Sequence record: MN153797.1
Reading direction: 5' to 3' (one strand)
DNA from: Tunavirus T1
DNA length: 48,822 nt
The position numbers and the translations under genes were made by a program. Positions 19,529 to 44,182 of this stretch are shown one piece after another. Below the pieces are notes generated by a model, which saw only the letters and a list, made by a program, of their open reading frames with translations, was not told the origin of the DNA and ran no database searches. Numbering within the stretch: position 1 is the stretch's first letter; each line of letters opens with the position of its first letter.

Positions 19529-19547
19529 GTATATAGGGGGGGGTTAT

Positions 19548-29602: not shown

Positions 29603-29625
29603 GCCCCTTGCGGGGCTTTTATTTT
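29603..29625. terminator. Bidirectional terminator between convergent genes
   Basis: gcccc-ttgc-ggggc with T-runs on both strands. Confidence 0.6.
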
Positions 29626-29851
29626 ATATCGAGCAATCGTGAGATTTGAAGTTTTTCTCTGATACATAGTTGAAGGAGAATGGGTATCCAGCACGCAATA
29701 CCATCTCCTTTCCGCGCATCTTAGATCCAAAAACGTAAACCGAGTACTCCGCGCCGCCTGATTCATAAATTGCCGTGCAAGTGCGCTCAGGCATCGATGA
29801 GCAACCAGTCAGGATGAATGCCGCAGCGATAACGGTGATTAACTTTTTCAT
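29624..29851 (-). CDS. cor: Cor-like small lipoprotein (candidate superinfection exclusion / receptor blocking)
   Basis: 75 aa; signal peptide MKKLITVIAAAFILTGC with lipobox LTGC; convergent with tail genes. Confidence 0.5.
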   Translation of the reverse strand: MKKLITVIAAAFILTGCSSMPERTCTAIYESGGAEYSVYVFGSKMRGKEMVLRAGYPFSFNYVSEKNFKSHDCSI

Positions 29852-32695: not shown

Positions 32696-34312
32696 CTACG
32701 TATTTTTTAAGCTTTCAACAAACTCTCCAGATACCATTCTTTCATGATTTCTTTTGCACTCTTCAACCTTCTTGTTGTAAATCGAGTCATTAGGCATCTC
32801 AACTCGAACGCTAACAAAAACATCACTCGGAATGTCAATAGGATCTCCGTCGCTATACCCATCCTTATGATTTCTTGCGAATGAAGGCGCGTTATCATGA
32901 GTTCTATGATAAGTCTTGATAACCAAAGACCCATCAGGGTTAACATCATAATCTACCCACAATATAGGCTGTCCGTTAATGTCTTTTGGTATCTCTATGC
33001 CACCATTAACACCACCCCACGCTAGATCAGAATTTAGTGATAAACACCCCCTTATCAAATACTCGCCAGTAGAAATCCTCTCAACTGTACAACCTTCGCT
33101 CTCGTCGTTTGTTCTATGGCTCCCGTTGCCAAAAATATCAACGATGGGCGAGGCTCTTTTTATAAATCCGTTAGAGTCAACGGTTGTATTGCCTGTATTC
33201 CATATAACCTGGGTAGATTGCCATTGCCCCGCTCCTGTCTGTTTTCTGAGCCTCACATCCTTATAGTGTGGAGAGGTCATTGATGCGTCTTCAATAACAA
33301 AACCGAAAGCACTACCATCTCCTTGACCGTTTCTATGACGAACAGATATAGCTGTGACCCATCCAACAGAATTAACATTGTAACTTGCAAGGCTGCTAGG
33401 CTGAGATGATAAGGCGTTAACATAATCTACCCAGCTTGATTTCTCGTTAGATGCCGGACTTGATACAACGTTACCGGAAGAACTTGCCTGAAACGGTATC
33501 CACGGAGAAAACTTTGCATTATTGCCGTTTTTCATCCTTATGTAAAAAGTGCCGCGACCCGCTCTTGCGTATTCGTTTTGAGAATTTCCAGATTCTGGGT
33601 CAGTACCCAAATAAGTAAAAGGCGTAAATCTCTGAATGCAAGCGCTTGCACCGTTAGCTCCATTAGGAAGAACCTCAAGCATACCTGCCGTAGCCTCAGG
33701 ATAGCCCCTACTAGCGGTAGCTAAAGCACTTGATGATTGCATATATATTCCAGGGCCATCACCTTCACCAGTTATTGAATCAAGATGTTTTTCCCCTAAG
33801 TTAGTTCTATCAAGTTTGTAAACCTTTAGGCTTGTCCTTGCCTGCTCCTCGGTAGTTCCACCAGTGCCACCAAAATTAACCCCTAGAGCCTTGTTTTCAC
33901 TTCCATCATGAGTCATGGCGCCCCAGTCGCCGCTATCCTTGACGATCAGCTTAAATCCGGTCCTATCGTCATTTGAATAGATTTCCGTTAAATCTCCGCG
34001 AGGTTGATTTAATCTATTTACTGCTAGATTTTTCTTTGATTGCTCCTTGTCAGCAAGGCCAGAAAGATTTCCGTCCTTAGTTAAAAGATTGTCAGCATTA
34101 ACGCTATTTGCTGCGTCCTGAGCTTCCTGAGCACTTACCGCTGCCGCGTCTTTAGCGCTAACCGCCGCATCGCGTGCTGCCTGGGCATCGTTTTTTGCTG
34201 AGGTTGCAGTTTGCGCCGCAGTCTGAGCATCATTAACATAGCCAGATAGATCGCCTTTAGCGTCATTAATTTCTTGAACGATATTGTTCAGTGTCCATAT
34301 CAAGATCGGCAA
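32696..34312 (-). CDS. tail fiber protein, C-terminal fragment (no ATG, no RBS; TTG is the first in-frame start)
   Basis: 538-aa ORF; N-terminus repeats the C-terminus of 34412..34867; Ala/Gln-rich coiled region then Gly/Ser/Asn-rich distal domain. Confidence 0.6.
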   Translation of the reverse strand: MPILIWTLNNIVQEINDAKGDLSGYVNDAQTAAQTATSAKNDAQAARDAAVSAKDAAAVSAQEAQDAANSVNADNLLTKDGNLSGLADKEQSKKNLAVNRLNQPRGDLTEIYSNDDRTGFKLIVKDSGDWGAMTHDGSENKALGVNFGGTGGTTEEQARTSLKVYKLDRTNLGEKHLDSITGEGDGPGIYMQSSSALATASRGYPEATAGMLEVLPNGANGASACIQRFTPFTYLGTDPESGNSQNEYARAGRGTFYIRMKNGNNAKFSPWIPFQASSSGNVVSSPASNEKSSWVDYVNALSSQPSSLASYNVNSVGWVTAISVRHRNGQGDGSAFGFVIEDASMTSPHYKDVRLRKQTGAGQWQSTQVIWNTGNTTVDSNGFIKRASPIVDIFGNGSHRTNDESEGCTVERISTGEYLIRGCLSLNSDLAWGGVNGGIEIPKDINGQPILWVDYDVNPDGSLVIKTYHRTHDNAPSFARNHKDGYSDGDPIDIPSDVFVSVRVEMPNDSIYNKKVEECKRNHERMVSGEFVESLKNT

Positions 34313-34330
34313 TAATATCCATGCCGATGC
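34197..34330. repeat. Direct repeat copy A (134 bp) of tail fiber coding sequence
   Basis: Matches 34418-34555 except three small indels (agt/tgag, gtg/gttg, cca/ccaa). Confidence 0.8.
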
Positions 34331-34355
34331 AGATTAGTGATAGCCTTGTCGGTTG

Positions 34356-34402
34356 CTGAATAAATAAAAAAAATAGGGGCCCCCCCCCCCTTTTTTATTC
34401 AG
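34356..34402. other. Palindromic element ctgaataaa-taaaaaaaa-tagggg-C11-ttt-tttattcag between the two repeat copies
   Basis: Inverted arms 34356-34364 and 34394-34402; homopolymers A8, G4, C11, T6 read directly. Confidence 0.8.
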
Positions 34403-34411
34403 ATAGACACG

Positions 34412-34867
34412 TCACGTGCTGAGGTTGCTGAGTTGCGCCGCAGTCTGAGCATCATTAACATAGCCAGATAGATCGCCTTTAGCGTCATTAATTTCTTGAA
34501 CGATATTGTTCAGGTTGTCCATATCAAGATCGGCAATAATATCCAATGCCGATGCGATCTCAGTCTCTTTGCTCTGGTAGTACCGAAGCGTCTCAGCGAC
34601 GTTTTGCGCAAGACCGTTAACGGTCAATGAATCGTTAAGCAAGATCACATACTTACCGTCAGCGGCAGTCTGACCATCCGTAGAGATAGCCTTTAGCTCT
34701 GTGTCGCTCACAATGTCGCTGATTACCGCCAGTTTAATTGGTTGCTCCAGGAATACGATAGTTGCACCGACTCGAATCAGAGCAAGCTGATCTTTCCATT
34801 TTGTATCGGTTCCGTGAACCGTACCGTCTGCATCCATTGATGCAGTACCGCGTCTATATAAAGCCAT
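34412..34867 (-). CDS. tail fiber protein, N-terminal fragment (151 aa) ending just after repeat copy B
   Basis: ATG 34867 with RBS aaggag; C-terminal ..LNNIVQEINDAKGDLSGYVNDAQTAAQ duplicated at start of 32696..34312. Confidence 0.55.
   Translation of the reverse strand: MALYRRGTASMDADGTVHGTDTKWKDQLALIRVGATIVFLEQPIKLAVISDIVSDTELKAISTDGQTAADGKYVILLNDSLTVNGLAQNVAETLRYYQSKETEIASALDIIADLDMDNLNNIVQEINDAKGDLSGYVNDAQTAAQLSNLST
34418..34555. repeat. Direct repeat copy B (138 bp) of tail fiber coding sequence
   Basis: See copy A. Confidence 0.8.
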
Positions 34868-42013: not shown

Positions 42014-42496
42014 ATGAACTGGCACGAGCATTACGAATATAGGGATGGTGTTCTATATCACAAGGTAAAGCCATGCAGAAGGCATGATGTAAATATTGGG
42101 GATGTTGCTGGAAGGGTTGCCAAAAACGGCTATCACTATGTTGTTCACAAGAACAGGCCGTATAAGAGATCTCGAGTTATATGGGAGATGTTTAATGGTG
42201 AGATACCAGATGGTTTTGTTATAGATCATCTGAATCACAATGCCACCGATGATAGGATCGATAACCTTGAGTGTAAGCCAAGAAGAGAGAATATGGTTAA
42301 TGTTAAGTTAAGGATTGATAGCACGACCGGAGTAACTGGCGTATCAAGAAAGAGGGATAACAAGTGGAGGGCGTACATAACAATTATGGGTAAGCAGAAG
42401 TGCAAGAGCTTTGACACGTTTGAGGAAGCTTGCGCGCAGAGGATTGAATGGTCAGTAACTCATGATTTTCACCCAAATCACGGTGGAACATACTAA
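42014..42496 (+). CDS. HNH homing endonuclease
   Basis: GVLYHK..DHLNHNATDDRIDNL..GVTGVS motifs; paralog of 5465..5959. Confidence 0.7.
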   Translation: MNWHEHYEYRDGVLYHKVKPCRRHDVNIGDVAGRVAKNGYHYVVHKNRPYKRSRVIWEMFNGEIPDGFVIDHLNHNATDDRIDNLECKPRRENMVNVKLRIDSTTGVTGVSRKRDNKWRAYITIMGKQKCKSFDTFEEACAQRIEWSVTHDFHPNHGGTY

Positions 42497-42568: not shown

Positions 42569-42745
42569 ATGAAGATAGTCAAGTGCATCCGAAATGACTC
42601 CAAAACACTTCCATTCCGTGTAAATCAGATCTATAGTGTTGGTTATGATTTCGGTGGGGGATTATTTGAGATTTACGACGGGCGAGGTTCAGCAATCCAG
42701 ACTCCTCTGAACGGTCACTACCTGGAATTTATTGAGATAGATTAA
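42569..42745 (+). CDS. small hypothetical protein (58 aa)
   Basis: ATG after promoter; not in ORF track (under 60 aa); weak RBS. Confidence 0.3.
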   Translation: MKIVKCIRNDSKTLPFRVNQIYSVGYDFGGGLFEIYDGRGSAIQTPLNGHYLEFIEID

Positions 42746-42863
42746 CAATAGCATTCATCACCTTACAGGCTGGCATGATTTACATGCTGGCCTTTTTGCG
42801 TTGTGTCAAATAAATTTGAAGGTTAAAATCTACTCACTTGTTCAAAAAATATATGGTGAGATT

Positions 42864-43079
42864 ATGAAAGAGTTTTTAACGGCTGCTACGTCAAGCACTG
42901 GCGGTGCTTCGTTGGTAGGGGCGGCGACAGGGCAACTTTATATTGCTGGCGCTACATTCATTTGCTTTCTGCTTTTTGGTGCCTGGGGAGCGTACTGGAA
43001 GTATCGTGATAGCAAGGCAATTCAGGAAGCGTTAAACGATGGCGATCTAAATAAGGCGCTTAAGATCAGGGGGAGATAA
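42864..43079 (+). CDS. holin (small TM protein upstream of endolysin)
   Basis: Internal ATG of ORF 42801..43079; hydrophobic core [21 protein letters not shown], charged C-terminus. Confidence 0.5.
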
Positions 43080-43567
43080 TGAGTTTAAAAAATAACGTTA
43101 TAGGCGCATCAATCGGGGCCGCTTTGACGTTGACACCTACCCTACTGGAACGGATCGAAGGTATAGAATACGAGGTTTATTACGATATCGCCGGAGTCCC
43201 TACCGTATGCAGCGGAATAACCGGGCCTGACGTCATACCTGGTAAGAAATACACTAAGCGAGAATGCGATGCATTGCTGATAAAACATATCGGCGTCGCT
43301 CAGCGATACGTTGACAAGAAGGTTAAGGTTGACATTCCGGTAACTATGCGCGCATCACTGTATAGCTTCACTTTCAACGTTGGGACTGGCGCTTTCGGAT
43401 CGTCTACAATGCTTAAGCTAATCAATCAGAGCAAGCACAAAGAAGCGTGTAATCAGTTATGGCGATGGGTATACTACTACAACCCAAAAACCAAAAAGCG
43501 CGAAGTGTCGAGAGGGATCAAGAATCGGCGCGCTGAAGAATACGCATATTGCGTTAAGGAACTATAA
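43079..43567 (+). CDS. endolysin (lysozyme-like, probable N-terminal signal-anchor-release segment)
   Basis: N-terminal weakly hydrophobic [17 protein letters not shown] then [21 protein letters not shown] lysozyme-like region. Confidence 0.7.
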
Positions 43568-43968
43568 TGAAACTTAAGAAAACGTGCATTGCAATTACGG
43601 TTGCTGTTGGTGTGATTTCTCTATCCGGTTGTTCGACGGCATCTGCTCTGAGTGGTTTACTTTCTGACTCCCAGGATGTTACGGCGCAGGTTGGCGCTGA
43701 GAACACAAAACAACTAGCAGGAGTAACAGCAAAGGCGGATGATAAGCGAGAAGTGAAGGTGAGTGATTCAAATATTGGCAAGATTGACTCATCCGTCAAG
43801 AAGTCCGTGGAGGTGTCAACCATTCAGGCCAACACGGTTAACGCTGAAAGCATCACAGTAACCAAATCTGGAAGCTGGTACGATCCTGTGGTTTGCTGGA
43901 TTCTCGTTTTTATTGTCCTGTTGCTGTTTTATTTTTTAATTCGTAAGCACGAAAAAAAGGAGGCGTAA
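43567..43968 (+). CDS. unimolecular spanin (lipoprotein signal plus C-terminal TM helix)
   Basis: N-terminal lipobox LSGC, C-terminal TM WILVFIVLLLFYFLI; directly after endolysin. Confidence 0.6.
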   Translation: MKLKKTCIAITVAVGVISLSGCSTASALSGLLSDSQDVTAQVGAENTKQLAGVTAKADDKREVKVSDSNIGKIDSSVKKSVEVSTIQANTVNAESITVTKSGSWYDPVVCWILVFIVLLLFYFLIRKHEKKEA

Positions 43969-43980
43969 GCCTCCTTTCTT
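43951..43980. terminator. Bidirectional terminator
   Basis: aggaggc-gtaa-gcctcct with A/T runs on both sides. Confidence 0.55.
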
Positions 43981-44182
43981 ATTTGTACCTTTTGACGTGA
44001 AGTAGCAACTCCCCATCCTGATCGCAAAGATTGTGCTCACCGTCGTTATTGGCCCTCATCGAAGTGAGCAGTAGGCTAAGTAATCCTTGCTCAAATTCTT
44101 CTTTCGTAAGCTGGAGCCTTGCGCACAATTCGACGTTCCGATCTATCAATGTTTCTACGTTCGCCAAACAAGTCTTCATCAC
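43979..44182 (-). CDS. hypothetical protein
   Basis: ORF track. Confidence 0.4.
   Translation of the reverse strand: MMKTCLANVETLIDRNVELCARLQLTKEEFEQGLLSLLLTSMRANNDGEHNLCDQDGELLLHVKRYK

Follow-up and report, generated by a model that had tools for sequence, protein, structure and literature searches.

The analysed stretch of DNA, referred to in the following as the window, comprises 48,822 nucleotides of sequence record MN153797.1 (Tunavirus T1). The original prediction had placed a three-gene lysis cassette at positions 42864-43968, and the list of open reading frames together with the sequence itself shows that this is exact to the base: three consecutive plus-strand reading frames fill the interval. 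They code for a holin (gp13), an endolysin (gp12) and a protein of 133 residues (gp11), which the curated annotation of the T1 record AY216660 lists as 'pinholin class 2' (orf13), 'SAR endolysin' (orf12) and 'u-spanin' (orf11). Both gene junctions have the form TAATG, with stop and start codons sharing one nucleotide. A one-base overlap of this kind is typical of translational coupling. The coordinates of all features are compiled in the table.

Table. Features of the lysis cassette and its flanks (positions refer to the window; KD, Kyte-Doolittle; TMD, transmembrane domain)
Feature	Position (nt)	Strand	Residues	Basis or remark
T1 orf14, standalone SH3-clan domain	42569-42745	+	58 aa	Pfam PF23896 DUF7244, E=8.8e-29
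Terminator-like hairpin with T-run	42767-42793	+		hairpin scan; rho-independent terminator annotated in AY216660
Holin, T1 gp13 (orf13)	42864-43079	+	71 aa	from ATG
SAR endolysin, T1 gp12 (orf12)	43079-43567	+	162 aa	
gp12 SAR domain (predicted)	43091-43147	+	~5-23	KD ~1.1, vs 2.97 for a true TMD
gp12 catalytic triad (E27-x8-D36-x5-T42)	43157-43204	+	27-42	read from sequence
gp12 R118S	43430	+	118	relative to T1 reference
u-spanin, T1 gp11 (orf11)	43567-43968	+	133 aa	
gp11 lipoprotein signal peptide	43567-43632	+	1-22	LSGC; Cys22 = nt 43630-43632
gp11 periplasmic domain		+	23-~106	no Cys
gp11 P36Q	43673 (codon 43672-43674)	+	36	relative to T1 reference
gp11 C-terminal TMD	43885-43941	+	~107-125	KD 2.97
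Terminator hairpin at 3' end of cassette	43956-43977	.		plus-strand scan; minus-strand terminator annotated in AY216660

Hairpins lie on both sides of the cassette. The upstream one separates the SH3 gene from the holin gene, and the downstream one overlaps the stop codon of gp11 and is located between convergent genes, the next gene being on the minus strand. Since the scan finds this second hairpin on the plus strand and AY216660 annotates a minus-strand terminator at the same place, it probably acts in both directions. The promoter scan yielded no sigma-70-like promoter on the plus strand upstream of the holin gene. By eye, a weak match (TTGTGT-N17-TAAAAT at 42801-42829) can be recognised, which agrees in 8 of 12 positions, lies under the threshold of the scan and is not claimed as a promoter. 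Two nucleotides downstream of it, at position 42831, the window has a T and reference T1 a G; this site belongs to the 70 nt that separate the upstream terminator from the start codon of the holin. An in-frame TTG at 42801, which would give a holin of 92 residues, was rejected as a start codon because it lies 8 nt past the terminator stem and inside the T-rich tail; it is not annotated in T1.

Standalone SH3 domains of the orf14 type occur in 188 of 522 Drexlerviridae, always adjoining the lysis module, and an accessory role in lysis has been proposed for the gene (2026, PMC13164509). T1 orf14 is thus a candidate for an auxiliary part of the lysis module of Drexlerviridae. The more far-reaching reading, according to which this standalone SH3 gene would be a genuine fourth component of lysis, is considered unlikely. 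Farther upstream, an HNH_3 homing endonuclease gene with a weak AP2-like match at the C-terminus of its product (42014-42496, plus strand) sits between a gene for an SbcD-like exonuclease and the SH3 gene. According to the KanT1 paper, this HNH gene is missing in KanT1, a close relative, and occurs sporadically within the family.

Judged by DNA identity, the window is coliphage Escherichia phage T1 itself. The interval 42600-44100 is 99.8% identical to the three T1 records AY216660, NC_005833 and MK213796, and positions 1-25000 of the window are 99.9% identical to the same records. A whole-genome comparison with AY216660 revealed colinearity throughout and 63 substitutions. Three base differences fall into the cassette region; the intergenic one at 42831 was mentioned above, and those at 43430 and 43673 lead to the exchanges R118S in the endolysin and P36Q in gp11. 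The sole structural difference from reference T1 is a repeat-containing stretch at ~34266-34500 within a large minus-strand reading frame (T1 orf26). It aligns in a shifted register, which explains most of the net length difference of 14 nt. Furthermore, a 1-nt indel was found at position 19536, in an annotated ribosome-binding site (reference 19536-19541) that immediately precedes the tape-measure gene.

The single-component spanin had originally been regarded as support for assigning this DNA to the T1-like phages. The assignment as such stands, on the strength of the 99.8-99.9% DNA identity; the spanin layout alone is insufficient for it. It is a weak argument for T1-likeness because u-spanins of the gp11 family also occur in Autographiviridae: relatives of gp11 were detected by tblastn in 1,156 phage records, Autographiviridae included.

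The first gene product of the cassette, gp13, is 100% identical to AAP49986.1 of T1 and matches PHROG 2877 ('holin') from end to end with E=1.9e-38. It belongs to no Pfam family; the Pfam matches consisted of sub-threshold noise only. The hydropathy profile shows a single peak that reaches 1.0 or more (residues 14-46), in which residues 25-43 form a strongly hydrophobic segment with a Kyte-Doolittle value of 1.81; a charged C-terminus follows this TMD. The N-terminal region (~residues 4-23) is rich in Gly, Ala, Ser and Thr and weakly hydrophobic, with a mean of ~0.9 for residues 4-22 according to a hand calculation. The start codon is preceded by GGTGAG. A dual-start (antiholin) motif was considered and rejected, as a single Met is present at the annotated start. 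The annotation of gp13 in AY216660 contradicts itself, in that it reads 'class 2' and yet '1 TMD'. The T1 holin has been proposed to be a class II pinholin with two putative TMDs (PMC11447400). Mode of action and topology of gp13 are predictions. The gene is paired with that of a SAR endolysin, as expected of a pinholin of the S21 68 type. Pinholins of this type have two TMDs, the first being SAR-like, and their depolarising holes are small (~2 nm) and impassable for endolysin; gp13 would have to behave likewise.

For the second gene, a lysozyme-like endolysin with a weakly hydrophobic N-terminal segment had been predicted, and both parts of this description agree with the data. The protein matches the Pfam family Phage_lysozyme (PF00959) with E=9.3e-33 as well as a PHROG endolysin family, and its N-terminal segment is of the SAR type, i.e. 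weakly hydrophobic (KD ~1.1) and rich in Gly, Ala, Ser and Thr. It was aligned with E=1.4e-34 to the structures 3HDE and 3HDF of the endolysin R21, and the E, D and T residues of the catalytic triad fall onto their counterparts. Of these structures, 3HDE is the inactive and 3HDF the active form of this SAR endolysin of phage 21. The alignment to full-length R21 (3HDE) begins at residue 11 of gp12. A single residue distinguishes gp12 from the T1 reference; as position 118 is occupied by Gly in R21, the alignment marks R118S as an exchange at a variable, unremarkable position. T1 gp12 has been listed as a predicted SAR endolysin (PMC11447400), and its Sec-dependent export and release from the membrane upon loss of the proton-motive force are likewise predicted.

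Like T1, phage 21 combines a SAR endolysin with a small holin, namely R21 with the S21 68 pinholin. The alignment of the two endolysins takes in the E, D and T residues and some of the SAR region. Between S21 and gp13, no Pfam family match connects the holins, and the two-TMD topology of gp13 is a predicted one. Unlike T1, phage 21 possesses a two-component spanin.

The third gene product is a protein of 133 residues for which a lipoprotein signal (LSGC) and a C-terminal transmembrane helix had been noticed; both elements were recovered by prediction. With respect to processing, the lipobox of gp11 fits the consensus: the PROSITE-style lipoprotein pattern (PS51257) is matched by VAVGVISLSGC, with Cys22 as the lipidation site and three Lys or Arg among the first seven residues. 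The lipobox Cys is followed by Ser at position +2 and Thr at +3, so that no Asp acting as a Lol-avoidance signal is present at +2. Lipoproteins that lack this Asp are sorted to the outer membrane by the Lol system. The same destination is therefore to be expected for gp11. At the other end of the protein, the TMD is followed by a short basic tail, which is predicted to be cytoplasmic.

With 132 of 133 residues (99.2%), gp11 is identical to AAP49988.1 / YP_003934.1, the protein of the reviewed UniProt entry SPANU_BPT1, with which it shares genome position, cassette, LSGC lipobox and TMD, and it matches PHROG 1804 ('Rz-like spanin') with E=2.9e-43. No Pfam family was assigned; the sub-threshold hits (Baculo_11_kDa, Insulin_TMD, DUF3262) were noise and were disregarded. 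In order to assess conservation, gp11 of the window was aligned with 36 homologues from a collection of 5.8 billion proteins (n=37). The lipobox core S20-G21-C22 is invariant in all 37 sequences, position 19 is Leu in 36 and Ile in one, and at +2, Ser is found in 36 sequences and Ala in the remaining one. The C-terminal transmembrane segment is present in 37/37 sequences, and none of the 37 contains a further Cys on the way from the lipobox to the TMD. A lack of periplasmic cysteines in the gp11 family has also been described previously (PMC6139136).

The same layout is seen in distant homologues with 31-43% identity, which belong to Hanrivervirus, Warwickvirus, Kyungwonvirus, Braunvirinae, one Klebsiella phage and two Pectobacterium phages of the Autographiviridae. 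Other u-spanins of the family (TLS Gp69 and those of Klebsiella, Cronobacter and Pectobacterium phages) are 31-47% identical to T1 gp11 and share with it the invariant G21-C22, a conserved AQxGxEN motif and the C-terminal TMD. The order of genes is not the same everywhere. In T1 the sequence is holin-endolysin-spanin, whereas in Autographiviridae it is spanin-holin-endolysin; examples of the latter are the Pectobacterium phages Nobby and PPWS1 (NC_048061 1123-2360, NC_047758 1159-2339). Because the spanin gene comes first in these Autographiviridae, in reverse of the T1 order, the gp11 family moves between cassette architectures. It is the largest family of u-spanins, accounting for 28 of 58 members, which sit in cassettes of the pinholin / SAR-endolysin type (PMC6139136).

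The original prediction had interpreted the 133-residue protein as a unimolecular spanin and not as part of the usual pair of inner- and outer-membrane proteins. If the latter were true, an o-spanin gene would be embedded in, overlap with or follow the gene of gp11, which would then merely be the inner-membrane partner. Embedded o-spanin genes are indeed the commonest architecture and are frequently missed by gene callers (PMC6139136). The region 42750-44050 was scanned in all six frames, and each open reading frame of at least 25 residues beginning with any ATG, GTG or TTG was tested for a lipobox. A separate o-spanin gene, be it embedded, overlapping or adjacent, was not found in these six frames; gp11 is the sole reading frame of the region with a strict lipobox. 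Loose matches to the four-residue lipobox were restricted to one internal start of the gp11 frame and three minus-strand reading frames without a signal peptide. As the only strict lipobox of the region thus belongs to gp11, and as lipobox and TMD are conserved in 37/37 sequences, their combination is not a chance match. The TMD of gp11 is C-terminal, whereas that of i-spanins is N-terminal. Moreover, gp11 is the prototype of the unimolecular spanins and complements the lysis defect of lambda RzRz1 on its own (Kongari et al. 2018, PMC6139136). The lipobox is required for this function; replacement by AWAC is functional, AWAS having served as a control (PMC6139136). The note to orf11 in AY216660 refers to the same function ('PMID 30135120 shows molecular function of unimolecular spanin'). 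A two-component spanin is consequently extremely improbable at this locus, and this reading has already been effectively refuted.

Alternatively, the protein could be an ordinary phage lipoprotein that is encoded beside the lysis genes and serves superinfection exclusion or receptor blocking in the manner of Cor or Llp. T1-like phages do encode exclusion lipoproteins, and homologues of gp11 are simply named 'lipoprotein' in several database sources. However, T1 has a separate cor gene (reference 29623-29850), and neither Cor nor Llp is characterised by a C-terminal TMD such as the one kept in 37/37 sequences. The gene of gp11 is coupled to that of the endolysin by the TAATG overlap, and in the genomes examined the homologous genes are always found within lysis cassettes. 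Such an assignment would also be at odds with the published complementation of lambda RzRz1 (PMC6139136). Its probability is close to nil, and gp11 is regarded as a u-spanin in what follows.

A comparison with lambda Rz/Rz1 illustrates how this u-spanin differs from the classical system. In both cases the spanin is encoded last in the lysis cassette, and the periplasm is bridged, with lipid anchoring on the side of the outer membrane and a TMD on that of the inner membrane. In gp11 a single polypeptide takes the place of the two; it lacks sequence similarity to Rz/Rz1, and gp11 contains no N-terminal TMD, no coiled-coil helices and no periplasmic cysteines. It is considered to have evolved independently of Rz/Rz1 (PMC6139136). 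The periplasmic domain of gp11 has been predicted to be rich in beta-strands (PMC6139136). An AlphaFold2 model of the monomer, which was calculated with the alignment of 37 sequences, had a mean pLDDT of 54.5 and a pTM of 0.23. Confident helices comprise residues 2-19 (signal peptide) and 105-132 (TMD, pLDDT up to 90), and most of residues 20-90 have a pLDDT <50 and were modelled there without secondary structure. At this level of confidence, the model neither supports nor contradicts a collapse mechanism based on beta-sheets.

Codon 36 of gp11 is CAG (Gln) in the window and CCG (Pro) in reference T1. All 36 other members of the alignment described above have Pro36, as do 9/9 sequences of a wider set that includes Autographiviridae. 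The proline is thereby invariant in all 45 comparison sequences, if it is kept in mind that the two sets overlap in the reference T1 allele. Because the family alignment has Pro at this position, Gln is the derived state. The exact Q36 protein was found on one contig (48,822 nt), and the P36 protein on 813. The substitutions between the window and AY216660 are biased as well: 51 of the 60 informative changes among the total of 63 lead from G/C in the reference to A/T in the window, and C>A/G>T accounts for 33 of the substitutions (binomial p=3e-8). The exchange responsible for P36Q is itself C>A. A spectrum that is skewed from G/C to A/T and towards C>A/G>T typically arises through artefacts of oxidative damage or through mutagenesis. 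The bias suggests that one of the two records contains sequencing artefacts due to oxidative damage or stems from a mutagenised stock.

These observations have to be weighed in deciding what the Q36 allele represents. It could be an artefact of sequencing or library preparation, or a laboratory-stock mutant of gp11 that is defective or altered in function and in this respect unlike the reference protein. The invariance of P36, the single contig with Q36 and the skewed spectrum all point in this direction. On the other hand, the record is otherwise intact and all three reading frames are open, and a non-functional spanin would not readily persist in a viable stock if divalent cations are present, as they are under laboratory conditions. 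The latter argument is qualified by the fact that shaken cultures tolerate a defective spanin. On balance, such an artefactual or mutant origin is a tangible possibility, albeit one that is doubted here. For the reference allele the spanin function of gp11 is published, and for the Q36 allele of the window it is putative. If P36Q were real, it would be expected to alter the activity of the spanin, because the proline is invariant in the comparison sequences of the family; that the exchange is both real and alters regulation or fusion activity is improbable.

Taken together, the region is with a probability of about 97% the lysis cassette of coliphage T1, using the pathway of pinholin, SAR endolysin and u-spanin. 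This identification is based on the DNA identity to T1, the identities of the proteins, the family and structure matches, the anatomy of gp11, the result of the o-spanin search and the literature. The pinholin mode of gp13, the SAR-type release of gp12 and the way in which gp11 fuses the membranes are steps that we infer from these data, and the following course of events can be envisaged, which corresponds to the accepted model of this pathway. The holin gp13 would build up in the inner membrane and trigger at a programmed time, and its small holes would collapse the proton-motive force. By then, gp12 would have been exported via Sec, and its N-terminal SAR domain, being weakly hydrophobic, would have tethered it to the inner membrane in an inactive state. 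Upon depolarisation it would be freed into the periplasm, refold and cut the peptidoglycan by means of its E-D-T muramidase triad. The prolipoprotein of gp11 would receive its lipid at Cys22, signal peptidase II would cleave it, and, given the Ser at +2, Lol would sort it to the outer membrane. As its C-terminal TMD would stay in the inner membrane, a single polypeptide would reach across the periplasm and through the meshwork of the murein. After degradation of the murein, gp11 molecules would be able to oligomerise and collapse, whereby the two membranes would be drawn together and fused or disrupted and the virions released. Fluorescence and genetic studies of u-spanin suggest that it accumulates and fuses membranes in a way that resembles two-component spanins.

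A lysis cassette with a u-spanin is already known for T1; it is a textbook example, and the term 'unimolecular spanin' was founded on gene 11 of this phage, so that nothing new is added in this regard. The experiment put forward together with the original prediction, complementation of spanin-defective lambda lysis, is likewise already published, since complementation of lambda Rz/Rz1 by gp11 has been reported. The value of the present check is thus mainly negative: the architecture had been recognised correctly from the raw sequence, and the window is phage T1. With regard to how u-spanins disrupt the outer membrane, the locus offers at most one handle, which is the single-residue variant P36Q. 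If its effect were true, this variant would be a natural allele for probing the mechanism of the u-spanin.
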